IMG/VR virus record: IMGVR_UViG_2778261223_000007
Span: 1 to 64,000 of that record
Source of the DNA: a virus
Lineage: Duplodnaviria; Heunggongvirae; Uroviricota; Caudoviricetes
Reading direction: 5' to 3' (one strand)
DNA: 64,000 nucleotides
In this document: one piece after another, positions 288 to 59,787 of the stretch
Numbering within the stretch: position 1 is the first letter of the stretch
How the letters are laid out: each line of letters starts with the position of its first letter
The notes under the pieces: generated by a model
The model's database searches: none
Seen by the model: the letters and a program-made list of their open reading frames with translations, nothing else
What the model was told of the DNA's origin: nothing
Made by a program: the position numbers and the translations under genes

Positions 288-680
288 TCATTGTCGCCAT
301 GCATTTTTTAACTCAGGAATATCTGCCATTTCAATTAACTTGCGAAGTCCAGCACTGACTTTCCCATTACCAACCATAGCAAGCCAATCTCTTACTGCTT
401 TCGGCATGTAGAGCGTTGCTGTTACCGGCTCTTCAACCCTGGCAGGACATCCGCATACAGGCCATTTAATTGATTCCATAACTTCGGAGGCCGGAGTGAG
501 GGCGGGGGCATTGAGTATATCTCTACCAGAAAACTGGATAACGATCCGTTCAGCGAGCGAGAGTATCTCACTTTCGGCAAGAATTGATGCCAACTGCGCC
601 TCAACAAGAAAGCGACTTGTTGTGTTCAGAGAGTGGCTCTTAGCGCCATTTTTATACGAAACAAAGATTCGATACGCCAT
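288..680 (-). CDS. hypothetical protein (130 aa)
   Basis: ORF divergent from the head gene; no confident motif. Confidence 0.3.
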   Translation of the reverse strand: MAYRIFVSYKNGAKSHSLNTTSRFLVEAQLASILAESEILSLAERIVIQFSGRDILNAPALTPASEVMESIKWPVCGCPARVEEPVTATLYMPKAVRDWLAMVGNGKVSAGLRKLIEMADIPELKNAWRQ

Positions 681-838
681 AACTCTAATGATTTGTGTTA
701 GAAAACCAAAATTAAATCACATAACAACATGAGTGTTAATAGATTTTATTTTACTAAACCTATTGACTAAATCACAAAGTAGGTATTGTTAGCCCGTCAA
801 AAGAACCTTCACGCCGCGCCCGAATATAGGGCTTAACC

Positions 839-6660: not shown

Positions 6661-7212
6661 ATGACACCAATTGAATTATTAGAAAGCGTTAAAGAGCGAT
6701 TTAATCCGCTGCTTGTGCGTGAAGAAGAAACGTTGAAAGCATTCCTGATCAAAGCTCTGACCACGTATCAGGACAGGGCAGGGGTAGTGAAAACGTTAAA
6801 ACTTGAAAGAGCTGGTGGTACTGCAATCCCGTTGCCAGAAGATTATCTCTCTCTGGTTCATGTTACCGACAACAACGGCCTGTTGGTCTATTCGGATGAA
6901 TTATCCGGCTTTATTGAATTAGAGCTAACAGGTTCAGAACGCTGGCCTTTTCGAATGCTGTATCTGGTTAATCTACGCGACAGAAAGCTGGATGAATGGC
7001 AAGTGCCTCCTGCAATCATTGGAATGCTGGAGGAATATCTGGAGGCGCTTATCAACGTAAGAAATGTCGCCCGGCAGCGTAGAGCATCCATCGACGGGAA
7101 ATTTGACTACTCCGATCTGCCCGATGAAGCCACGCTATATGCCCGCGTGCAGGAGATTGAGGAAAAAATGTCCTCAAACCGGGCCATTATTCCGGGGGCT
7201 ACCATTTTTTAA
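6661..7212 (+). CDS. hypothetical tail-module protein
   Basis: 183-aa ORF in structural operon. Confidence 0.3.
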   Translation: MTPIELLESVKERFNPLLVREEETLKAFLIKALTTYQDRAGVVKTLKLERAGGTAIPLPEDYLSLVHVTDNNGLLVYSDELSGFIELELTGSERWPFRMLYLVNLRDRKLDEWQVPPAIIGMLEEYLEALINVRNVARQRRASIDGKFDYSDLPDEATLYARVQEIEEKMSSNRAIIPGATIF

Positions 7213-7227
7213 CGCTGGAGGCGCAGA

Positions 7228-7935
7228 GTGAGTATTTTCAGCAGCGTTGGTAGAACGTTGACCACCGCATTGTCATTTAACACGAAATCATTCACCAGCA
7301 ACCTCATTAGCGACATTCTTGATAAAGCCATATCAGGCGGCGGGGTAAGCGGGAATTACAGTAGCGATATTGCCTACGGGAAAAATATTGTTGCTGCCGC
7401 TATGCGTATCCGTTACGCCCAGGGGTGGCAGTGGACCGTTGAAGTGGATGGTCTGAACGGCTTCGATATGTTCGTGAAGGATATCACCTACAGCAGTGGG
7501 AACATCGAGACAGAAAGCAAGGTGATCGGCAGCGTAGAATTCAGCAAGCCAACCTATGTTAGCGCCGGACCGGTCACTATGACCGTGAGGGATACCGAAG
7601 ATGGCAAGATCATGGACTGGTTCAAAGAGCGTCGTTCTCGTGTAACAAATCCTGATGGAACAATAAACCTTCCTCCGGAATATCTGATGAAAATCCGTGT
7701 CTACCGGGTAACTCAGGACGGCGGAAAAGAACTGGAAGAAGAAATGCGCGTATTTCCTACACAACTTGGGGAAATCACTCGCTCACGTGATCAGGTGTCA
7801 GAGTTCTTGTCATACCCAATCACTTTCCAGAAATACACATCCGCAGGCTCAGGTGTTTCTGCTTTGGTCAACGGTGCCGCAGGCATGGCTACAAGTGCGT
7901 TAAAGGGAGCTGTGAGTGGAGTGATTAAATTCTGA
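7228..7935 (+). CDS. hypothetical tail-module protein
   Basis: 235-aa ORF in structural operon, Gly/Ser-rich ends. Confidence 0.3.
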   Translation: MSIFSSVGRTLTTALSFNTKSFTSNLISDILDKAISGGGVSGNYSSDIAYGKNIVAAAMRIRYAQGWQWTVEVDGLNGFDMFVKDITYSSGNIETESKVIGSVEFSKPTYVSAGPVTMTVRDTEDGKIMDWFKERRSRVTNPDGTINLPPEYLMKIRVYRVTQDGGKELEEEMRVFPTQLGEITRSRDQVSEFLSYPITFQKYTSAGSGVSALVNGAAGMATSALKGAVSGVIKF

Positions 7936-8015
7936 AGCGCTTTAATTATGTGTGCTGGAGGGTTGCTCATTTCCCGTCAGCACCCACGCCCTCAACGATA
8001 GCGGGTAGGGAAGGT

Positions 8016-8320
8016 AGCGCAATTTTGAGGGCATTTTTTACATCATCAATTCATCTGTAATGAAGGCATTCTTTACACATTTCAATAATATCAATCAGTT
8101 AACACAGTGAATGATAATAAAAAAGCGCAATAAGAATGCACGATACGCACGATATTGGTTGAGGGTGATTTTTACATAACCCTTATATATCAATGCGTTA
8201 TATAAAAACACAACTTGCTAATAACAAGATACATGCAATTAAGATGTAAAAATTGCCCTCAATTGCCGATCGTTAAGGGCAAATTCTACACCTTGAGAAG
8301 GGTGTAAAAATTGCCCTTAA
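8016..8320. repeat. iteron cluster downstream of rep (incA-like copy-control iterons)
   Basis: ~19-bp iterons TGAGGG(C/T)(A/G)nTTTTACA(T/C)C at 8016-8034, 8160-8178, 8243-8261 (inverted), 8274-8292, 8301-8320 (inverted). Confidence 0.6.
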
Positions 8321-9072
8321 GATTGCTGATAGGTAAATTTTATCCTGGTAACTTTGCCGCCTTCCGTCACCTCTGAGAAGACTATTTTCATTTTTGTATT
8401 TTTTTCAATCTCTGCTACAGCCTTCGTTAAAAAACTTCTCTTAAATTCGGCATACCGCTGATAGCTTTTTGGTAACCCATAACGCTCCCGCATCCATTCG
8501 ACGCCAAGTATGGCAAAGCCGCTTCCATCATCCTTCCTGTACTGGCATAAGGACTCATAAAGCCGCATAGAATAAGGATTTGTAAGGCGAGATACTTCGG
8601 TAAAATTCAGCCTTGTGAATCTCTTATCAAGCAGAGTAAAAAACGGCATGAGATATGGATTAAGATGAATAATGTAAGTCCCGCGCCGTGGTGAATAGGC
8701 ATCCTTAATCATCCAAGGATAAGACTCATAACTGTCTTCTGATTCGGTCGATTCATCAGGGTTATATATCGTAACTTTCTTCTCGCTAAGACCTGAAATG
8801 GCCTTACGAATATCCTTGCTGGCTTCAGCAGAGGGCAAATTATACATCTCTGCATATTCGTTGACCGTCAACTCACAGGCACCTGAACCAAGAACGCCAT
8901 CCTTAGAAGCATAGCGAAGTCTTCCCACCACAATAAACAACAGTCGCTTTTGGTCGCGAGTCAGGTGATAAGCAGCCTCCGTGATCTCATTGGCTTGTGC
9001 CAAACTACGACTAATAGGTGTCGCTGACTCAATCAGGCTGACGGCTTTTGCTGTTAATTCCGCTCTGTTCAT
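8317..9072 (-). CDS. iteron-type plasmid replication initiator (RepA/Rep_3-like)
   Basis: Flanked on both sides by iterons; sequence has the feel of Rep_3 initiators (..NPYSMRLYESL..). Track ORF starts at TTG 9105 inside the first iteron; ATG at 9072 (MNRAELTAKA) is the more likely start. Confidence 0.6.
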   Translation of the reverse strand: MNRAELTAKAVSLIESATPISRSLAQANEITEAAYHLTRDQKRLLFIVVGRLRYASKDGVLGSGACELTVNEYAEMYNLPSAEASKDIRKAISGLSEKKVTIYNPDESTESEDSYESYPWMIKDAYSPRRGTYIIHLNPYLMPFFTLLDKRFTRLNFTEVSRLTNPYSMRLYESLCQYRKDDGSGFAILGVEWMRERYGLPKSYQRYAEFKRSFLTKAVAEIEKNTKMKIVFSEVTEGGKVTRIKFTYQQS

Positions 9073-9096
9073 AACCCTGTGTGATCCTTCAAATGG

Positions 9097-9355
9097 TGAG
9101 GGCAATTTTTACATCACTTTGAGGGCAATTACTACACCTTTTGAGGGCAAATCTTACACCTTTTGAGGGCAAATCTTACACCGATCGTATTTAATTGAGG
9201 GCAAATCTTACACCAGCCTCCTCTACAGCCCGCGCCACTACTGGCTCCAGCGACGCCTAAAAAGGATCTAAAAAGGATTAAAAATGGAAAAAGGTTTATA
9301 AAAATACTCTGTGGATATGTGAGTAGCGTCACTTAAGGTGTAAAAATCACCCTCA
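9097..9355. other. plasmid-type origin: 5 direct iterons at ~22-bp spacing, A-rich stretch, DnaA-box-like site, one inverted iteron
   Basis: Iterons TGAGGGCAA(A/T)T(C/T)TTACA(C/T)C at 9097, 9119, 9142, 9164, 9196; A-rich region 9250-9300; ATATCCACAG (DnaA-box-like, reverse strand) ~9308-9317; inverted iteron 9337-9355. Confidence 0.55.
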
Positions 9356-9460
9356 ATAATCGCTTCTCGACCGGCAAAGATCTTCATTCAATCCCCATCG
9401 CAAATCACACACTCCCTATCCTCTGGAAAATGAACAGATACCTGCTTTTCGGAGGAATAA

Positions 9461-10282
9461 TTGAACATTCCAAAATTCCCATTGCCTTCCCGTCCTGAGA
9501 CAGAAATTCAGTTCCACGCCCCTACCGTGAAGGATGCGCTGAAATATTCTGACCTGAACCCGGCAGAAGATGAGGCAACTACTACAGAGTACCTTAACTC
9601 TATGCAGGATGGTGAAATTAACGACAGTGCTAACTGGACAGTTCAGGATCGCAGAACTGCTCTTTGGTGGATATTTGTTAATTCGCGCCCCGATGCAGTA
9701 ATGACCTACTCCTATGAGTGCAGTCACTGCGGTAATACGCATCATGCAGATATTAACCTGAGCGACCTGGCCCAAACAGTAGAAATACTCACTGTACCTC
9801 CTTACGTGAAAACCAACGTACCAGTAAATGGAATACCAACTGACTGGATACTTAAACCATTAACCGGGAAAGGCGCGGAACTCCTTGAACGAATGCGAGC
9901 GTCACTTCCTGATATGAAAAGCCCCGAATACAGTGCTGGCGTGGCACGGATGCGAATTGCTGAACTCGCTTTATGCACGGCGCTTGAAGACGATCCGGAG
10001 GACTTCACGCAGGCCGCTAACCGACGCTTTGACATCATTGAAAGCATGGCGCTTGAAACCGAATTTACTCCGCTTGTGGCTCGCATACAGCTTATGCAAA
10101 AAGACCTACGCCACGGCCTGAAAATGTCTATTGAGAGAGGCACAAGCCGACTGATCCTGCCTCCGCAACATTGCAAAAACGCTAAGGAGGGTGCAGATGT
10201 GACAACCACACTGTACGTCCCCTTTCTCAATAGAGAGTTTATCCCATCAATTAGATCTGAATGGATGGCTAACCATTATTAA
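9461..10282 (+). CDS. hypothetical tail-associated protein
   Basis: 273-aa ORF immediately upstream of the tape-measure-like gene. Confidence 0.3.
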   Translation: MNIPKFPLPSRPETEIQFHAPTVKDALKYSDLNPAEDEATTTEYLNSMQDGEINDSANWTVQDRRTALWWIFVNSRPDAVMTYSYECSHCGNTHHADINLSDLAQTVEILTVPPYVKTNVPVNGIPTDWILKPLTGKGAELLERMRASLPDMKSPEYSAGVARMRIAELALCTALEDDPEDFTQAANRRFDIIESMALETEFTPLVARIQLMQKDLRHGLKMSIERGTSRLILPPQHCKNAKEGADVTTTLYVPFLNREFIPSIRSEWMANHY

Positions 10283-16742: not shown

Positions 16743-16836
16743 TAATTCCTCCCCCGCATTTGGGGGAAGAACAACGGAAATCACAAACTGAGCATACTCT
16801 CCTTTGGTTCATTGCTTATGAAGGAGCTATGTTCGT

Positions 16837-29862: not shown

Positions 29863-29946
29863 TCATTAACAGCACCAATAAAACTCTCCTATCAAATCAC
29901 ATACTGATTATGCTGCCGCAAAACTGGAAACAATTTGCGGTGATTC

Positions 29947-35864: not shown

Positions 35865-36015
35865 ATTTTTCTCCCGGTCATGGGTTAATAAGTAGGCAAA
35901 CTATGGGGAGTATGTGATTTTGACGGTAGTATCGTCCCCCTGAAAATAACATTCTCCATACCCTCTCAACCGTACCGCATAGCGGAATTTTTTACGGTTT
36001 AGAGGGGGAAATCCT

Positions 36016-53870: not shown

Positions 53871-54908
53871 TTACCAGAGCTTCGCGGCGTACTGCGTTTG
53901 GGGGAATGTGTATCCGTAACGTTCTTCGATTGCTTTGCCGTATTTTTTACGAGCTTCATTCAGTTTAATGCCGGTCAGGTCGTCTCCAGAGGCCATCATT
54001 ACGTCTAACAATTCCAGATCCATTTTATCCAGCCTTGCCATTGCTTCACGTGATGTACGTATCTTACGCTCAATGATATGGCGAATAGCCGGATCGGCAT
54101 CCTCCAGCATCTTAGCGGATTTCTGCTTAAGGCTTTCATTGCGAATATCGATGTTCCTTAAGATGTACGACTTCGCAACGTAGCTTGGCTGGTGTTTTTC
54201 CAGGTCACGAACACGATATAAGTTAAAATCGCCGAGAAGGCTGCAAGGTACCGATTCGACGCCAGAATAAATTGTAATGCTCCGGCGTTCACCAACATTA
54301 TTGACAACGGGGATCGTTGTCTTCGGTTGTCTTGCGAAAACCAATGCGCCATGTGCGCCAACTCTAAAGCGAGAAAGGGCATTGCTGCCTTCGATGTTTG
54401 TTGTCAGCACAACATCTGTATATGCCTCTTTACGCGCCCGGTAGATCTCGCCTTCAGGCTCAGCTTCAAAGAAGCGCTGTTCTTCTTCAAGAGCACCTAC
54501 GATTTGAGAAAAAACCCTATTTTTCAGGCTTTTCTTTATGATTTTGTCGTATTTTTTTAGCAATTGTTCACGTGTAAATGTACGTGTTGTTGTAGCGCTT
54601 TGCACAACGACATGCGTGCTTTGATTGGTGTCCTCAATGATGAATGGGATCGGAGAATATACAGACTCAACAATGTTCGACGCTTTGCCGTCGGCATCGC
54701 GGCACATGTCAACGAAGGCTTTCCATTCAGCAAGACATTTTTCAGCTTCTTCTAATATGTTTTGGTCATGCGTTAATGCAACATGGCGGAATTCCTCGCC
54801 AGCATAACTGGTATCATGGAAAACAGAGTTTGCGACCACCAGCTCTTTCCACCGTTCAGCGGTTTGCAGGAACCGTTTGTACTCTTTCTCGATCGACTTC
54901 TTACTCAT
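53871..54908 (-). CDS. hypothetical protein at the c1-like position (candidate regulator)
   Basis: 345-aa ORF between terminase genes and the lox-like site, with an operator-like motif 15 bp upstream of its start; function not supported by any motif. Confidence 0.35.
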   Translation of the reverse strand: MSKKSIEKEYKRFLQTAERWKELVVANSVFHDTSYAGEEFRHVALTHDQNILEEAEKCLAEWKAFVDMCRDADGKASNIVESVYSPIPFIIEDTNQSTHVVVQSATTTRTFTREQLLKKYDKIIKKSLKNRVFSQIVGALEEEQRFFEAEPEGEIYRARKEAYTDVVLTTNIEGSNALSRFRVGAHGALVFARQPKTTIPVVNNVGERRSITIYSGVESVPCSLLGDFNLYRVRDLEKHQPSYVAKSYILRNIDIRNESLKQKSAKMLEDADPAIRHIIERKIRTSREAMARLDKMDLELLDVMMASGDDLTGIKLNEARKKYGKAIEERYGYTFPQTQYAAKLW

Positions 54909-54922
54909 TATTCCTACTCGAT

Positions 54923-54937
54923 TTAGTTTTCTAACAT
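54923..54937 (+). promoter_or_regulatory. operator-like motif
   Basis: TTTAGTTTTCTAACATA in the promoter region of the minus-strand gene starting at 54908. Confidence 0.45.
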
Positions 54938-55117
54938 AAAATTACTATGACAAATTTATGTCGAATAACAGAGTGAGTAAAGGATCGAACTGTGATTTTT
55001 TGTCATCAATTTTAGAAAACCAACCGTAGAAACCACACTTCGCTAATTAAAGACCATGAAGGCAACGTGTTACTGGTCATCATCAATCTATGATGGATTA
55101 AAAAAAATCGGCATTTT

Positions 55118-55151
55118 ATAACTTTAAATAATTGGCATTATTTAAAGTTAG
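55118..55151 (+). promoter_or_regulatory. lox-family recombination site (rox-like): 13/14-bp inverted arms around a short spacer
   Basis: ATAACTTTAAATA-ATTGGCAT-TATTTAAAGTTAG; core TAACTTTAAATAAT-TGGC-ATTATTTAAAGTTA equals the rox site of phage D6 Dre (reverse orientation) as recalled; 150 bp upstream of the Cre-like gene. Confidence 0.8.
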
Positions 55152-55302
55152 GCTATAATCATGTGTAGATGAACAGTATTGACATCACTGAAAATACGTG
55201 CATCCAATCAAAGGCTTGTATTTTGAAAATTAACTTATAGCTACCCTGTCATTTTTATATTTTTCGCGTAGCTTCATCTGTATATAGAGGTGAAATGGTT
55301 TC

Positions 55303-56331
55303 ATGAGTGAATTAATTATCTCTGGCAGTTCCGGTGGTTTTCTGCGCAACATTGGCAAAGAGTACCAGGAAGCCGCAGAAAACTTTATGCGGTTCATGAA
55401 TGATCAGGGTGCTTATGCGCCGAATACTCTGCGCGACCTCCGGTTGGTGTTTCATTCCTGGGCGCGCTGGTGTCACGCTCGCCAGCTTGCCTGGTTTCCG
55501 ATCTCACCAGAAATGGCCCGCGAGTATTTTCTTCAGTTGCATGATGCCGATCTGGCTTCGACCACCATTGATAAGCACTACGCCATGCTTAACATGCTGC
55601 TTTCTCATTGTGGCCTTCCGCCACTTTCGGATGATAAAAGTGTTTCTCTGGCTATGCGGCGTATCCGGCGCGAAGCGGCAACGGAAAAAGGCGAACGAAC
55701 AGGCCAGGCTATACCGCTGCGATGGGACGACCTGAAACTGCTCGACGTCCTGTTGTCCAGGTCAGAACGGCTGGTGGACCTGCGCAACCGGGCTTTTCTC
55801 TTTGTTGCATACAATACGCTGATGCGTATGTCGGAAATCTCGCGTATTCGTGTAGGAGATCTGGACCAAACAGGTGACACTGTCACGCTACATATTTCAC
55901 ACACGAAGACAATAACGACCGCCGCCGGGCTTGATAAGGTGCTTTCCCGTCGCACTACTGCTGTGCTGAATGACTGGCTGGATGTTTCCGGGCTTCGTGA
56001 ACATCCTGACGCGGTGCTGTTCCCGCCGATACACCGTAGCAATAAGGCCAGGATTACGACAACGCCCCTTACTGCACCTGCAATGGAGAAAATATTCAGC
56101 GACGCCTGGGTGTTGCTGAATAAAAGGGATGCCACGCCAAACAAAGGGAGATACCGGACGTGGACCGGGCATAGTGCTCGTGTCGGGGCCGCTATCGATA
56201 TGGCTGAAAAGCAGGTGTCTATGGTGGAGATTATGCAGGAAGGAACCTGGAAGAAACCGGAAACACTTATGCGGTATCTGCGCCGTGGCGGTGTGTCTGT
56301 GGGGGCTAATAGCCGCTTGATGGATTCATAA
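55303..56331 (+). CDS. dre: Cre-family tyrosine recombinase (Dre-like)
   Basis: 342 aa; aligns along its length with P1 Cre from memory at roughly 40-45% identity (..VSLAMRRIRRE.., ..LRNRAFLFVAYNTLMRMSEISRIRV.., ..WTGHSARVGAAIDMA.., ..WKKPETLMRYLRRG with catalytic Tyr). Confidence 0.85.
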   Translation: MSELIISGSSGGFLRNIGKEYQEAAENFMRFMNDQGAYAPNTLRDLRLVFHSWARWCHARQLAWFPISPEMAREYFLQLHDADLASTTIDKHYAMLNMLLSHCGLPPLSDDKSVSLAMRRIRREAATEKGERTGQAIPLRWDDLKLLDVLLSRSERLVDLRNRAFLFVAYNTLMRMSEISRIRVGDLDQTGDTVTLHISHTKTITTAAGLDKVLSRRTTAVLNDWLDVSGLREHPDAVLFPPIHRSNKARITTTPLTAPAMEKIFSDAWVLLNKRDATPNKGRYRTWTGHSARVGAAIDMAEKQVSMVEIMQEGTWKKPETLMRYLRRGGVSVGANSRLMDS

Positions 56332-56749: not shown

Positions 56750-57222
56750 AAACTTATTACCCATCTCTGAATTGTTACCCGTCTTCCTATCCAGGATTGT
56801 CCGGGAAGCTGTTAGCTCTATTAGCTAAAGCACCTACGGAATGGTTTAAGCCAGTCGTTATCAATCCACACTTCCTGGATTACGGATCTGTTCGCACTCG
56901 TAACGAACTCAAAAACCTACTGGCGCATGGATTCATTCGACACCGTGCCGGTAAAGGCTATCAGTTATCGATTGCGCCAGAAGAGGCCGTGCGGCTATTC
57001 GCATATCGTGACAGCCAGACAAAAGCTCGGGTAATAGCTCAAATACTTCATAACGGCAGCACCTATGCCCGCCAGTTTGGCGGCGACACGTCGCAGTTCT
57101 TGCGGGCGGTGCGATCGCTGGAGGAGCAAGGAGTTATTGAAAGTTCCTGTCTTCCTGTTCCAACCGTTCCACATATCAAACGTCGGGTTTACACCTTCAC
57201 GCAGAGAGCTAAAAAACAATGA
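56746..57222 (+). CDS. hypothetical protein with winged-helix-like segments
   Basis: 158 aa; two wHTH-like stretches (..SVRTRNELKNLLAHGFIRHRAGKGYQLS.., ..FLRAVRSLEEQGVIE..). Confidence 0.35.
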   Translation: MKTYYPSLNCYPSSYPGLSGKLLALLAKAPTEWFKPVVINPHFLDYGSVRTRNELKNLLAHGFIRHRAGKGYQLSIAPEEAVRLFAYRDSQTKARVIAQILHNGSTYARQFGGDTSQFLRAVRSLEEQGVIESSCLPVPTVPHIKRRVYTFTQRAKKQ

Positions 57223-57713
57223 TTTACGTAAAAGTGAAACGCCTACATCCGGCAGCAAAACTTCCAGCTTATGCCACCTCCGGATCGGCGGCGATGGATT
57301 TTGAGGCTGTTGAAATAAAACCATGTGTCGATAGCAATGGTGCAATTTCCTCAAGCTGGTGGGTGTACACCGGATTGGCTATGGAGATCCCGCCCGGCTG
57401 GTGTCTGAAACTCTATCCGCGATCCGGATTGGGCTGCAAAAAACATACTCGCCTGGCTAACTGCGTAGGAATTATCGACTCCGATTATCGCGGCGAAATC
57501 ATGGCAAAACTGATTACTGATCCCGGCGGGGAAGGCGTTTGTCTCAAGCCTGGAATGGCTGTCATGCAAGGAATTTTTGAGCGTGTTGAACAAGTCTCAC
57601 TAGTCGAGGTTGAGGAACTCAACGAAACGGAACGTGGTGATGGTGGCTTTGGTAGCACATCGGAAGGCCACTTTGAAATTAAGCGTTCACCGCTTCAGTA
57701 CGAAAAGTTATAA
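57219..57713 (+). CDS. dut: dUTPase
   Basis: 164 aa; conserved dUTPase motifs AMDFEA, YPRSGLG, GIIDSDYRGEIM. Confidence 0.7.
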   Translation: MIYVKVKRLHPAAKLPAYATSGSAAMDFEAVEIKPCVDSNGAISSSWWVYTGLAMEIPPGWCLKLYPRSGLGCKKHTRLANCVGIIDSDYRGEIMAKLITDPGGEGVCLKPGMAVMQGIFERVEQVSLVEVEELNETERGDGGFGSTSEGHFEIKRSPLQYEKL

Positions 57714-57727
57714 GCAGAGAAAAGACT

Positions 57728-58168
57728 ATGAATAACATGGCAACGAAAGAGCTTTTTAAGTTCCTTCCAAAATACAAAGCTCACAAAAAAAATGGAACCA
57801 CGGTCATCATTACGGATGACAACGGCGTGATGATTAATCTTACCGGGAGCGTAACTATTTCTGCTGGTGGCATCACCACCCAGCAAGAAGAAATCGACCT
57901 TGAAGCAGCCGACTTTTCTGACGCGCTGATGTGGCTGAAGGATGGCAAGAAAGTTGCTCGACGCGGGTGGAACGGCGAAAACCAATTCTGCTGGCTGGTT
58001 CCTGAAGGACAGTACCCGGCACGAATGGAAGCCATTAAGGGATATTTCCCCGGCGACCTCGTTCCGTATGGTGCTTATTTCGCCTTAAAAAATGCACAAG
58101 GTGTAGTTGTTCCGTGGGTTCCTTCTGTAGGCGACTTACTGGCATGTGACTGGTTTGTGGTGGAGTGA
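57728..58168 (+). CDS. DUF2829-domain protein (Tad2-like fold family)
   Basis: 146 aa; ..FSDALMWLKDGKKVARRGWNGENQFCWLV.. matches the DUF2829 signature as recalled. Confidence 0.5.
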   Translation: MNNMATKELFKFLPKYKAHKKNGTTVIITDDNGVMINLTGSVTISAGGITTQQEEIDLEAADFSDALMWLKDGKKVARRGWNGENQFCWLVPEGQYPARMEAIKGYFPGDLVPYGAYFALKNAQGVVVPWVPSVGDLLACDWFVVE

Positions 58169-58174
58169 TTTAAC

Positions 58175-58951
58175 GTGGAAAATACTAAAGCAATTCAATA
58201 CCGCTTGCGTAATGGCCTGCTGGTGGCTGTTAACGCCGACATGTCACTGCCGTTTGACACGATTGAACGCACTATCATGACATATCTCGGCTTTAATGAA
58301 GAACTGAATGAAGAGCATGGCGTAGCTATATGGAGCGATGCAGAAAGCGGCGTTCATCGTTACATCACCGCCAGGGGCAAAGACTACTCTCTGGAAGAAC
58401 TGTTTACCCTTGCACAGTCTTTCGAATGTGTAGCATTAGACATGTTTAATGATCCTGCTATAGCGCAACGACTTATACGCGAGCTTGGGCTATCCGTTAC
58501 ACCAATTATCTTTAAGAATGGCAGCCTGACTGGCACATGGCGCGTAGAACGCATCTCAAACTACCTTCCATATAACCGACAGTTAAATGGAGTAATCTCC
58601 GGCGTTAATCAGCCCGTAGCGTGTGAAAATGTAAACCTGGTTGTCGCTGTTTTGGCAACCGCATGTCGTGTTATCGGTTTGGCTAAACAGGCATTTATTC
58701 ATTTCCCAAATGGTGCAGAAGGTAGCGCAGAGATTATCGCGTGTGATTTCGAATTTACCTGGATGCTACGCGAATATCTGGACCAAACAGTATTCCGTGC
58801 CGAAGAACTGGATATGTATATCACGTCAACGATTCCAGACGATGTGCGAGCAGAAGCAATCGCTACAGCCAGGGCGAAATGCCGTGCGGCGATTGCAGAA
58901 CGGGCCAAAGAAGAACAGTCCAATGATACAGCGGCAGAAGAGGTGGAATAA
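58175..58951 (+). CDS. hypothetical protein (258 aa)
   Basis: ORF followed by a strong bidirectional terminator. Confidence 0.4.
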   Translation: MENTKAIQYRLRNGLLVAVNADMSLPFDTIERTIMTYLGFNEELNEEHGVAIWSDAESGVHRYITARGKDYSLEELFTLAQSFECVALDMFNDPAIAQRLIRELGLSVTPIIFKNGSLTGTWRVERISNYLPYNRQLNGVISGVNQPVACENVNLVVAVLATACRVIGLAKQAFIHFPNGAEGSAEIIACDFEFTWMLREYLDQTVFRAEELDMYITSTIPDDVRAEAIATARAKCRAAIAERAKEEQSNDTAAEEVE

Positions 58952-58985
58952 CAAAAAGCCCGCTTGGTATGGCGGGCTTCTTTTC
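58952..58985. terminator. bidirectional intrinsic terminator
   Basis: AAAAAGCCCGCTTGGTATGGCGGGCTTCTTTTC between convergent transcription units. Confidence 0.65.
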
Positions 58986-59202
58986 AAATACTGGAAGCAC
59001 TTTGTCTGCTACCAAGCATTCTCTGTTTAAGCACAACCATTTCCTGACGGCATAACACAGCAATAGCGGTCCTGGCACCAATTTGCTTACCAACCAGGTA
59101 TTGCTTTACCTCGCGGCGACTCACGCCATCAAGAAGCATCTTTAACGCTTCACGGGACAACTTGTTGTATTTACGTGCCATTAATCTACTCCGCAGAACC
59201 AT
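58984..59202 (-). CDS. small hypothetical protein downstream of doc (possible HTH)
   Basis: 72-aa ORF overlapping the doc stop; basic, helix-rich. Confidence 0.25.
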
Positions 59203-59566
59203 ACAATCTACGTAACGTGTCGGCGACAGAAGATACAGATATCTCGCCAGTCGCAGCGCCTACAGTAAGGTCTGCCAGTTCAGGTGAATCAAATACCTGA
59301 ACCCCGTTACGGCGTAGAAATAGCAGCGCACTGTTTAGCGCGGTACGCTTATTGGCATCATTGAATATATGCCCTCTCGCTGTAGCCACCAGGTAGGTGG
59401 CGGAGACTTCGAAAAGGTCGCTGATCTCTTCGTAGGCAACTCTGGCCTGAACTCTCCCGATAATGGCCTCTGCCCTACCCGGATCTGACATTCCCGGCAG
59501 GCCACCGTAGCGGCTTATATTCGCATCATGAAGCGCAATAAGTTCTTCCGGTGATATATGCCTCAT
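59186..59566 (-). CDS. doc: Doc toxin (Fic-fold kinase)
   Basis: 126 aa, [22 protein letters not shown]...[19 protein letters not shown]...; recalled as essentially the P1 Doc sequence, including the Fic-type motif. Confidence 0.95.
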
Positions 59567-59787
59567 TATCGGTTAACCAGTTCCTTGTTGGTGGAGTCCA
59601 GGGTGTCAAACAGGGATGCAAATTCGGCATCCAGCGCCGCTTTTTTGTAGGCTTCAAAAGTAGCCTTGCTAACAATTACTGCTGGCTCACGGCCTCTGCG
59701 GGTGATTTCAACCTCTTCCCCGGCTTCAACATTGTTGAGCACTTCAGAAAGGTTGCCGCGCGCGGTACGGAAGTTAATGGATTGCAT
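59566..59787 (-). CDS. phd: Phd antitoxin
   Basis: 73 aa from [56 protein letters not shown].. (track ORF starts 2 codons earlier); stop overlaps doc start by 1 nt. Confidence 0.95.

Follow-up and report, generated by a model that had tools for sequence, protein, structure and literature searches.

A mini-F-type iteron replicon as the probable plasmid-prophage maintenance replicon of Escherichia phage D6

The window, that is, the whole 64-kb stretch of DNA analysed here, is 99.9% identical to Escherichia phage D6, a temperate phage-plasmid with a P1-like plasmid prophage, and its segment 8026–9355 very probably represents the plasmid-prophage maintenance replicon of D6, an iteron-controlled theta replicon of the mini-F (ori2/repE/incC) type. 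This assignment is based on homology, layout, the statistical enrichment of the iterons, and the selective conservation of each element, all of which were observed in the present analysis. The sole plasmid initiator annotated in D6 is orf42 (YP_009914719), which corresponds to the minus-strand gene at 8317–9072 and is described in the D6 record as "putative plasmid replication initiation"; apart from orf42, lytic repL is the only gene for replication. A preliminary description of this DNA had recognised an iteron-type plasmid replicon among tail genes, with rep placed between the origin and copy-control iterons. This core reading was borne out by homology, statistics, and phylogenetic footprinting, the copy-control role being assigned by analogy, and each of the elements listed was found where it had been placed or within a few bases of it. 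The D6 replicon was known already and is ordinary in mechanism, the exchange of cassettes and the conserved iteron within rep being small additions. Iterons beside the rep gene of pYU39_89 have been noted before (PMC6799933), and the location of replication genes apart from partition genes in the D6 subgroup has been published (PMC7969092). No experiment on the autonomous replication of a D6 fragment or on Rep–iteron binding was found in the accessible literature.

The features of the segment and its edges are listed below in window coordinates; mismatches refer to the iteron pattern TGAGGGCAAWTHTTACAYC, and invariance to a footprinting set of five relatives, whose replicon segment has 84–90% DNA identity to D6 or is near-identical to such an element.

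7948–7987, no strand assigned: apparent relic pair of inverted P1 (IncY)-type RepA iterons, ATGTGTGCTGGAGGG on the plus strand at 7948–7962 and GTGGGTGCTGACGGG on the minus strand at 7973–7987
8026–8044, plus strand: downstream (incC-like) iteron TGAGGGCATTTTTTACATC, 1 mismatch, 14/19 columns invariant versus 12–29% in the flanking spacers
8061–8079, plus strand: degenerate iteron-like site TGAAGGCATTCTTTACACA, 4 mismatches
8160–8178, plus strand: downstream iteron TGAGGGTGATTTTTACATA, with the "TCACCCTCA" variant as in F, 16/19 invariant
8243–8261, minus strand: downstream iteron in the opposite orientation, 0 mismatches, 16/19 invariant, a 19/19 reverse complement of origin iteron 1
8274–8319, no strand assigned: inverted pair of full-length iterons, 8274–8292 (plus) and 8301–8319 (minus), 8 bp apart
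8317–9072, minus strand: rep (D6 orf42), encoding a 251-aa RepE-like Rep_3 initiator with WH1 and WH2 domains
8830–8848, plus strand: intragenic iteron-like site AGAGGGCAAATTATACATC, 2 mismatches, in the rep sense GATGTATAATTTGCCCTCT, codons M-Y-N-L-P-S
9097–9214, plus strand: origin array of five direct 19-bp iterons starting at 9097, 9120, 9142, 9164, and 9196, in the rep sense GGTGTAAGATTTGCCCTCA
9215–9254, no strand assigned: G+C-rich spacer that separates the iterons from the A/T-rich region, 33% A+T, 57% invariant, with a comparable spacer in F
9255–9308, no strand assigned: A/T-rich region with phased A5 tracts, presumed DNA-unwinding element, 76% A+T
9310–9318, minus strand: DnaA box ATATCCACA, 8/9 match to TTATCCACA, aligned with the proximal F ori2 DnaA box
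9337–9355, minus strand: outlying inverted iteron beyond the DnaA box, 2 mismatches, outer edge of the cassette
9402–9422, plus strand: D6-type late-promoter-like motif AAATCACACACTCCCTATCCT upstream of pmgB, 21/21 invariant, right edge of the replicon slot, outside the replicon itself

The minus-strand Rep gene reported previously was confirmed; it starts with an ATG at 9072, ends with a stop codon at 8317–8319, and is intact in every element examined. Both winged-helix domains of its product score above the Pfam gathering thresholds of the Rep_3 family (PF01051 and PF21205), with values of 2.9e-29 and 102.7 bits for Rep3_N (cut-off 22.4) and 9e-16 and 58.3 bits for Rep3_C (cut-off 21.1). The RepE structures 1REP, 2Z9O, and 7UXY in the PDB match Rep at E ~1e-73, and the RepE protein of F is 50% identical to it over 228 aligned residues (E 2e-86), so that the comparison with Rep_3 families suggested earlier gave a clear similarity to initiators. 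In PLSDB, the best Rep matches after those in D6-like plasmids are annotated repE genes with about 50% identity, and a graded series of relatives with 78, 71, 63, 60, and 57% identity leads to this RepE cluster. R6K pi and pPS10 RepA, members of the same Pfam family that follow the same iteron/handcuffing paradigm, produce weak matches (E 2e-6 and 6e-4, respectively); they are much farther from D6 Rep than RepE is, and their iterons and origin layouts are not alignable with those of D6.

Upstream of rep, the five direct 19-bp iterons with a phasing of about 22 bp were found as described, with start-to-start distances of 23, 22, 22, and 32 bp. Three of the five have exactly the sequence TGAGGGCAAATCTTACACC, and each is invariant among the relatives at 18–19 of 19 positions, while the two variable spacers are invariant at 23–33%. 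The A-rich region likewise claimed for this side contains five A5 tracts at 9259, 9270, 9280, 9288, and 9300, i.e., about 10–11 bp apart, and aligns with its counterpart in F ori2, including TATTTTTATAA and TTTTTAGATC. Only one conserved GATC occurs in the origin, at 9265 within the A/T-rich region, and one other, at 9183, lies in a variable spacer. DnaA boxes are not significantly enriched in the window (10 sites with up to one mismatch versus 15 expected); the proposed DnaA-box-like site is supported by its invariance in five diverged relatives and by its positional homology with the F ori2 boxes, not by count.

A canonical sigma-70 promoter scan of 7800–9600 revealed nothing in the iteron region. 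With a looser scan, the best candidate for the rep promoter was a weak extended −10 element, TGTAAAAAT, inside iteron 1, and the rep promoter probably lies within iterons 1–2, as this weak motif hints. Iteron 1 is separated from the rep ATG by 24 bp, in which no inverted-repeat operator was detected. An Rfam scan of 7800–9600 for antisense or regulatory RNA returned no match at E up to 1.

The iteron pattern, allowing up to 3 mismatches, has 12 matches in the 64-kb window, all of them within the 1.33 kb from 8026 to 9355, versus 0.22 expected from shuffles, although the pattern was built from the same iterons and this enrichment count is therefore partly circular. The comparison of the five relatives showed that the invariance of the origin iterons is 95–100%, that of the A/T-rich region 91%, and that of the downstream iterons 74–89%, while the DnaA box and the outlying iteron are completely conserved (9/9 and 19/19, respectively) and the spacers are invariant at 12–33%.

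The array downstream of rep occupies about 300 bp and includes six conserved iterons or iteron-like sites in mixed orientation, for which a copy-control role may be suggested by analogy. The five mixed-orientation iterons noted previously were recovered at 8026 (plus), 8160 (plus), 8243 (minus), 8274 (plus), and 8301 (minus), and a degenerate sixth can be added, since the interval 8062–8080 is invariant at 16 of 19 positions in variable surroundings. The iterons at 8160–8178 and 9337–9355 are exact reverse complements over 18 nt. The members of the inverted pair at 8274–8319, with 14/19 and 17/19 invariant columns, overlap the rep stop codon, and whichever strand is transcribed, the RNA could fold into a 22-bp hairpin (RNA fold of −33.8 kcal/mol, z = −6.7). 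This hairpin was rejected as a canonical terminator because no U tract follows it, and neither the stretch from tub to the first iteron nor the sequence following the inverted pair contains a canonical terminator.

An additional iteron-like site at 8830–8848, inside rep, was absent from the preliminary list. It is invariant at 18 of 19 positions in the five D6-like relatives, and its 17-nt core ATGTATAATTTGCCCTC occurs without a single base change in Rep genes whose products are only 71% and 57% identical to D6 Rep. The same core is missing from the relative with 78% identity and from F.

The closest known system is F ori2/RepE/incC (IncFIA), and not P1 oriR. The homologous F RepE has the same length of 251 aa and both winged-helix domains, and the parts follow the same order in F and D6: DnaA box, A/T-rich region, direct 19-bp iterons, rep, and a downstream iteron array. 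The two origins can be aligned at the DNA level over the DnaA box, the A/T-rich region, and the iterons, which number four in F and are spaced at 21, 33, and 22 bp, so that both systems combine a spacing of about 22 bp with one interval of 32–33 bp. The D6 and F iterons have 13–15 of 19 positions in common, including the AAATTGCCCTCA block, and the TCACCCTCA variant occurs in both. The other half of the iteron, a putative WH2-side half-site, is GGTGTAAGA or GATGTAAAA in D6 versus TGTGACA in F. In view of this difference, and since the window contains no match to an F-type iteron even when 3 mismatches are allowed, the specificity and incompatibility of the D6 replicon are probably distinct from those of F. 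Further differences concern regulation and context. F has an inverted-repeat operator (L005 4403–4432), made of half-iterons that overlap the rep promoter and serve autorepression by Rep dimers; D6 lacks it, the only close inverted pair of D6 being at the 3' end of rep, and the five downstream iterons of F are uniform in orientation, whereas those of D6 are mixed and include the inverted pair over the stop codon. Two D6 sites are additional to those of F, the outlying iteron on the far side of the DnaA box and the conserved iteron within rep. The D6 replicon is located in a phage tail-gene region, where it is flanked by tub and pmgB and has neither sopABC nor ccd beside it.

From the homology to F RepE and to further replicons of the Rep_3 family, a working scheme can be proposed for how Rep binds, how the origin fires, and how autorepression and handcuffing would operate. 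From right to left in the window, which is the direction of rep, the cassette comprises the outlying inverted iteron, the DnaA box, the phased A/T-rich region, the G+C-rich spacer, five direct iterons at about two helical turns, rep with its internal iteron, and the downstream six-site array. Rep monomers bound to the five origin iterons would act with box-bound host DnaA to open the neighbouring A/T-rich region, allowing DnaB and the host replisome to load. Rep bound to iterons 1–2 would overlap the probable rep promoter and could thus repress its own synthesis. The copy number may be kept low by the downstream iterons, perhaps with the help of the intragenic one, through titration of Rep and pairing with the origin iterons ("handcuffing").

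The cassette is inserted between tub and pmgB, two genes that are only 14 bp apart in P1. The location in the tail module, previously considered unusual, is so relative to P1; however, it is standard in D6-like phage-plasmids, since 124 PLSDB records contain D6-like tub and/or pmgB sequence and 111 PLSDB records carry the D6 replicon. A motif of the form AAATCACA-N7-YATNNT, derived from D6 intergenic regions, has 5 matches in the window against 0.03 expected, 4 of them upstream of late genes in the correct orientation. The P1 late-promoter consensus AARTKACTW-N4-TANAAT (from annotated LPs, LPsit, and LP23) has no match in the window at up to 1 mismatch and is not enriched at up to 3, which implies that the D6 late promoters differ. 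Homology among plasmids with differing replicons resumes at the motif at 9402–9422. Judging from these motifs, the cassette lies between two late transcription units, one ending with tub and the second starting at the late-promoter-like motif before pmgB. Rep is indeed a minus-strand gene among tail genes, as stated in the preliminary description, but instead of interrupting a single plus-strand structural operon it appears to lie between two units, the motif at 9402–9422 marking a separate pmgB unit. The statement that no par genes are adjacent was correct; ParM/StbA-like and ParA-like genes of D6 are found at 57140–59656 of the record, about 10.5 kb away and just past the left edge of the window.

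The tub–pmgB slot also carries traces of another replicon. The inverted pair at 7948–7987 includes one exact 15-mer match to the P1 iteron core and a second copy with 2 mismatches; it is absent from two of the five relatives and bears substitutions in the rest. P1-type iterons, GATGTGTGCTGGAGGGAAA in the incC and incA arrays of P1, are represented in D6 by this decayed pair only. Its junction with the tub stop codon and its spacer are homologous to the incA-like array of an IncY-type replicon occupying the same slot in NZ_CP066033.1, whose RepA is 84% identical to P1 RepA. On the strength of this homology, both a chance match and a terminator hairpin were rejected as explanations of the pair, the local fold being not unusual (z = −1.7). 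In CP042620.1, the slot contains a p0111-type replicon (RepB 85% identical) and has kept three RepE-type iterons. Judged by homology, the RepE-like cassette replaced an earlier P1/IncY-type replicon in this slot, and the relic is a remnant of a P1-type incA array outside the working replicon. The p0111 replicon, represented by RepB of pO111_2, resembles that of D6 as an interchangeable maintenance replicon of P1-like phage-plasmids found in the same slot, while RepB, with 41% identity to RepA, falls in the lineage of P1 RepA and not in that of RepE, and the p0111-type iterons (core ~ATAGTCAACATT) and GATC-rich origin differ from those of D6. AP010962.1 was represented in these comparisons by its RefSeq twin, NC_013370.1. 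Separately, P1-type and RepE-type iterons were seen to be interleaved in the 179-bp repeats of L016.

One could go further and propose that the tub–pmgB gap is a replicon "landing pad", which exchanges at least three iteron cassettes (RepE-like, IncY RepA, and p0111 RepB) by recombination at shared flanks, that leftover heterologous iterons (the P1-type pair of D6, the three RepE-type iterons of CP042620.1, and those of L016) are retained as incompatibility weapons titrating the initiators of rival phage-plasmids, and that the intragenic iteron is a new autoregulatory or handcuffing site peculiar to a RepE sub-clade. Taken as a whole, this combined proposal seems to us unlikely.

Three explanations other than a mini-F-type maintenance replicon were considered. 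The preliminary description compared the segment with P1 oriR, and a replicon of the P1 oriR/RepA (IncY) type, with a RepA-family initiator and regulated like P1 incC/incA, would account for several likenesses: P1 oriR/RepA/incA also ensures low-copy maintenance of a P1-like plasmid prophage, it likewise has a DnaA box, five origin iterons within which the promoter of rep probably lies, and a control array on the downstream side, and two P1-type iterons do occur in D6. The logic of the origin/rep/copy-control layout stands as a point of resemblance, but the family is that of F RepE. No significant similarity or meaningful alignment between Rep and P1 RepA was obtained with BLASTP (E 0.057), and the iteron sequence does differ from that of P1, as had been stated, since only 6–8 of 19 positions agree between the P1 iteron and the working iterons of D6; membership in the RepA family is thereby refuted. 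P1 is annotated with a cluster of five GATC heptamers next to tandem DnaA boxes, whereas D6 has no such cluster and a single conserved GATC, and the P1 replicon adjoins parAB/parS between gene 23 and upfA and not between tub and pmgB. Moreover, no RepA gene accompanies the P1-type iterons of D6, which are decayed and not found in all relatives, and the true P1-type replicons that other plasmids carry in this slot have a clearly different appearance, which leaves a P1-type replicon scarcely credible.

It is also highly unlikely that D6 is kept by an unrecognised replicon, such as low-level repL or an initiator encoded by a hypothetical gene, with the cassette persisting as a remnant that is redundant or has no function. 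D6 does have many hypothetical genes, and replicon relics do persist in the slot, as illustrated by the P1-type iterons of D6 and the RepE-type iterons of CP042620.1; against this, the rep frame has remained intact, every functional element is conserved amid freely varying spacers, and no other plasmid initiator has been annotated or typed. In addition, D6-like plasmids without this replicon carry another complete iteron replicon in exactly the same slot, which is the pattern to be expected of a slot that houses the essential maintenance replicon. The half-site common to the D6 and F iterons, the heterologous iterons kept beside the replicon, and the late transcription past tub that would converge on rep could instead point to an element that is mainly lytic, or to an incompatibility or exclusion device, made of iterons and Rep, against F-like plasmids or rival phage-plasmids. 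However, D6 has its own repL homologue for lytic replication, no full F-type iteron exists in the window even with 3 mismatches, and the full origin set of DnaA box, unwinding region, and phased iterons aligns with a bona fide plasmid origin, so that we regard such a role as extremely unlikely. A maintenance replicon of the mini-F type thus remains the preferred reading of the segment.

The 111 PLSDB plasmids with the D6 replicon are mostly 75–95 kb in size and nearly all non-mobilizable. One apparent natural mini-replicon, the 36-kb NZ_CP027382.1 with an identical Rep, was rejected as such, being an incomplete linear fragment of a D6-like element. For the D6-like plasmids checked, the only replicon type assigned by MOB-suite was rep_cluster_1704, and not IncFIA.

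The replicon type decides which plasmids and phage-plasmids coexist in one cell, and D6-like elements occur widely in E. coli and Salmonella of human and food-animal origin. Recognition of the D6 replicon as a diverged F/RepE-type, and not IncY or p0111, is helpful for replicon typing, given that MOB-suite provides an anonymous cluster only. From its sequence, the replicon type would predict compatibility with P1-like elements and probably also with F. The understanding of iteron replicons is unchanged by these findings. Replicon switching had been reported before for the P1 subgroup, and the occurrence of three replicons in one tail-gene slot widens this observation to the D6 subgroup.

A megablast search showed that positions 7900-9500 of the window correspond, with 99.9% identity over the full query, to Escherichia phage D6 (NC_050154 / MF356679), a P1-like circular plasmid prophage of 91,159 bp, in whose record the plus strand of the window appears as the reverse complement. 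The rep gene is already annotated in this sequenced phage as orf42, 'replication initiation protein; similar to P1 gene repA?; pfam01051; putative plasmid replication initiation', and is surrounded by a long series of plus-strand head, tail and baseplate genes; the feature is known and its paradigm well understood. A repB gene 'associated with iteron sequences' was mentioned for the D6-like plasmid pYU39_89 (PMC6799933).

Features of the D6 replicon and its flanks (window coordinates)
7228-7935: tub (orf43), flanking rep, D6 annotation
8026 (+), 8160 (+), 8243 (-), 8274 (+), 8301 (-): downstream iterons
8061-8079: thirteenth site, more degenerate, revealed by comparative alignment
8317-9072, minus strand: rep (orf42)
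8830-8848: twelfth iteron match, within the rep coding sequence
9097, 9120, 9142, 9164, 9196 (starts): five direct 19-bp origin iterons, spaced by 23, 22, 22 and 32 bp
9255-9308: A-rich block (76% A+T), its five A5 tracts recurring roughly once per helical turn
9310-9318, minus strand: DnaA-box-like site ATATCCACA
9337-9355: sixth upstream iteron, inverted
9461-10282: pmgB (orf41), flanking rep, D6 annotation

Comparison of D6 Rep with known Rep_3 initiators, as proposed in the preliminary description, revealed clear similarity. The protein matched both Pfam Rep3_N and Rep3_C far above the cut-offs, and the F initiator RepE (1REP, 2Z9O, 7UXY and others) was found in PDB with E ~1e-73, R6K pi and pPS10 RepA trailing far behind. 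In BLASTP, D6 Rep and F RepE, both of 251 aa, share 50% identity over 228 aligned residues (E 2e-86), and no significant similarity to P1 RepA was detected (E 0.057). The PLSDB ranking comprised about 108 D6-like copies with at least 95% identity, then annotated repE genes at about 50%, and below them IncR-type or unnamed replication initiation proteins at about 31%; relatives with 78, 71, 63, 60 and 57% identity in a large protein database link D6 Rep to the ~50% RepE cluster.

All previously listed elements, namely iterons on both sides of rep, an A-rich region and a DnaA-box-like site, were found to be present. Three of the five origin iterons are exactly TGAGGGCAAATCTTACACC, and a degenerate pattern built on these sites and allowing up to three mismatches gave 12 matches in the 64-kb window, all inside 8026-9355, versus 0.22 expected from shuffles, a count that is partly circular because the pattern was drawn from the same sites. 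A spacer with 33% A+T separates the A-rich block from the origin iterons. The window shows no excess of near-consensus DnaA boxes (10 found versus 15 expected), and the assignment of the DnaA box therefore relies on conservation and on the alignment with F ori2. An inverted pair of full-length downstream iterons spans the rep stop codon and is predicted to form a 22-bp hairpin (-33.8 kcal/mol, z = -6.7) without a U tract.

F ori2 consists of tandem DnaA boxes, an A/T-rich stretch and four direct iterons TGTGACAAATTGCCCTYA with spacings of 21, 33 and 22, followed by an inverted-repeat operator, repE and five oppositely oriented iterons (incC). In a pairwise alignment with D6, the DnaA boxes (TTATCCAC / ATATCCAC), the A/T-rich regions (TATTTTTATAA ... 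TTTTTAGATC) and the iterons coincide. In the direction of rep, D6 iterons have the sequence GGTGTAAGATTTGCCCTCA or GATGTAAAAATTGCCCTCA; 13-15 of their 19 positions, including an identical AAATTGCCCTCA block, are common to F, whose TCACCCTCA variant also occurs in D6, whereas the P1 iteron GATGTGTGCTGGAGGGAAA matches at only 6-8 of 19 positions. The likeness of Rep, iterons and origin to those of F argues that the D6 replicon belongs, in diverged form, to the mini-F (ori2/RepE/incC) type. Thus, the parallel initially drawn with P1 oriR holds for the general logic of an iteron replicon and fails for the family, given the RepA and iteron comparisons, while the suspicion that the iteron differs from that of P1 was justified.

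Several differences from F were observed. D6 lacks the inverted-repeat operator that precedes repE, and just 24 bp lie between iteron 1 and the rep ATG, so the rep promoter is probably embedded in the iterons, where the P1 record annotates PrepA. A standard promoter scan found none for rep; the best candidate would be a weak extended -10 TGTAAAAAT within iteron 1. The downstream iterons, uniform in F, are of mixed orientation in D6, including the pair across the stop codon, and D6 carries an additional iteron past the DnaA box. The window contains no F-type iteron at up to three mismatches, and the half-site distal to TTGCCCTCA, which we take to be the half contacted by the C-terminal domain of RepE in its complex with the iteron, differs in D6; these two observations argue for an incompatibility specificity that is likely distinct from that of F. 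F is typed as IncFIA, and D6-like plasmids as rep_cluster_1704 (MOB-suite).

The replicon segment was found in 111 PLSDB plasmids of Escherichia, Salmonella and Shigella, mostly 75-95 kb in size and nearly all non-mobilizable. Invariant columns were counted per feature in an alignment of D6 with four relatives, three being the most diverged among the matches listed (84-90% DNA identity to D6) and the fourth nearly identical to one of them. The origin iterons have 18-19 invariant columns of 19 each, versus 23-33% in the two variable spacers among them; the DnaA box (9/9) and the outlying inverted iteron (19/19) are fully invariant, as are 91% of the columns in the A/T-rich block, and the downstream iterons retain 74-89%, against 12-29% in the spacers of their array. 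This classical phylogenetic footprint provides the strongest in silico evidence of selection on the repeats, the DnaA box and the A/T-rich region and, together with the Rep family and the F ori2 alignment, supports the original reading of an iteron-type plasmid replicon.

The site within rep reads GATGTATAATTTGCCCTCT in the sense of the gene (codons M-Y-N-L-P-S) and is invariant at 18 of 19 positions across five D6-like elements. Two more distant rep genes share its 17-nt core ATGTATAATTTGCCCTC to the nucleotide, synonymous codons included, namely those of the metagenomic P1-like contig L018 (71% protein identity to D6 Rep) and of the Nissabacter sp. SGAir0207 plasmid CP028040.1 (L020, 6001-8472; 57%); the core is absent in another such contig, L016 (Rep 78% identical), and in F repE. 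Since the core and its synonymous codons are kept while neighbouring codons differ, DNA-level constraint is suggested in part of the sub-clade; the site could act, for example, as a roadblock or in titration or handcuffing. CP028040.1 is an ordinary 73-kb plasmid, in which a 294-aa gene with a weak Rep3_N match adjoins rep.

In P1, 14 bp separate tub from pmgB within the LPsit operon, and oriR-repA-incA-parAB-parS is located between gene 23 and upfA, a placement shared by the replicon of the p0111-type plasmid pO111_2, whereas in D6 these two genes have 1,525 bp between them. A search of the window for the late-promoter consensus of P1 found no match. However, the motif AAATCACA-N7-YATNNT, built on the three copies that precede the major capsid gene, pmgB and R and then recovered independently at two other places, occurs five times versus 0.03 expected (769-789, 9402-9422, 16778-16798 and 29894-29914 on the plus strand, 35900-35920 on the minus strand). 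One copy falls within the annotated portal gene, about 170 nt in, and the lysozyme-like orf16 is preceded by a copy, as are the major capsid gene, pmgB and R; the copy at 9402-9422 is invariant in relatives at 21 of 21 positions. The motif looks like the D6 counterpart of the Lpa-dependent late promoters of P1. Its presence before pmgB would place the cassette between two late units, one ending at tub and the other starting before pmgB; rep does lie within the tail-gene block, as described previously, but does not appear to interrupt a single operon. Transcription of rep converges with the late unit ending at tub, and silencing of rep by late read-through is a speculation. Partition genes are indeed not adjacent: ParM/StbA-like and ParA-like genes lie about 10.5 kb away (record 57140-59656), just past the left edge of the window and beyond upfC. 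That replication and partition genes lie apart in the D6 subgroup has been published (PMC7969092). The P1 oriR-repA-par position, between gene 23 and upfB, is occupied in D6 by four small hypothetical genes, orf52-55 (window 288-833 region; D6 record 54233-55706).

The D6 replicon is present in 111 of the 124 PLSDB records in which D6-like tub and/or pmgB sequence occurs; others have a different replicon in the slot between these genes, in the same orientation. NZ_CP066033.1 (L015, 1209-2657; rep_cluster_2221) contains a true P1-type replicon, with RepA 84% identical to that of P1. Five P1-type iterons, a DnaA box and a region rich in GATC lie toward pmgB, and the tub stop codon is directly followed by an incA-like array. 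CP042620.1 (L007, 5987-7821; rep_cluster_2164) contains a p0111-like replicon with its own iterons and a Rep 85% identical to pO111_2 RepB and 41% to P1 RepA and, of the RepE-type iterons in the D6 layout, retains the leftmost three. In both, homology to D6 picks up again near the late-promoter motif. CP057047.1 (L014) was grouped with the D6-like phage-plasmids carrying an alternative complete iteron replicon in this slot. Extra DNA in or beside the slot was seen in NZ_CP095127.1, NZ_CP116996.1, CP055626.1 and NZ_CP122809.1, two of them with IS200/IS605 tnpA/tnpB and two with a Rha-family regulator and an Icd-like cassette. In the P1 subgroup, IncY and p0111 replicases take each other's place at a single position (Pfeifer et al., PMC7969092), and 17 switches between IncY and p0111 were inferred in a 2024 survey of Salmonella.

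In D6, which has no RepA gene, the stretch from the tub stop codon to the first RepE-type iteron contains an inverted pair of P1 (IncY)-type iterons (7948-7987), comprising the exact 15-mer ATGTGTGCTGGAGGG and a copy with two mismatches. The tub junction of this pair (GCTTTAATTATGTGTGCTGG) is homologous to the IncY-type incA-like array of NZ_CP066033.1, as is the inter-iteron spacer in a better preserved E. fergusonii copy; the pair is absent in two of five relatives and mutated in the rest. Because junction and spacer are homologous to an array in the same slot, replacement of a P1-type replicon by a RepE-like cassette, with a decaying remnant left behind, is the simplest reading. Rep genes 71-78% identical to that of D6, with very similar iterons, occupy different positions in other P1-like metagenomic elements. 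In L018 (5869-5976 and 6228-6246), a RepE-like replicon with five iterons GGTGTAAGATTTGCCC and the intragenic iteron seen in D6 is located upstream of genes size-matching P1 genes 23, 22 and 21, in a relative orientation opposite to that of the P1 replicon. In L016, three ~179-bp repeats downstream of the RepE-like rep (6760-7290) each combine RepE-type iterons in both orientations with an inverted P1-type pair (GGTGTGCGCTGGAGGGAA / TTCCCTCCAGCACACAC), so both iteron types are amplified together in this element.

These additions to published knowledge of D6 are modest, but the accessible literature possibly does not state the relationship to F, the exchange of three cassettes in the tail-gene slot, the IncY relic, the iteron within rep or the D6-type late-promoter motif. 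Judging from sequence comparison, the D6 cassette is best described as a diverged mini-F/RepE-type replicon that would serve as the maintenance origin of the prophage and is very likely capable of autonomous replication.
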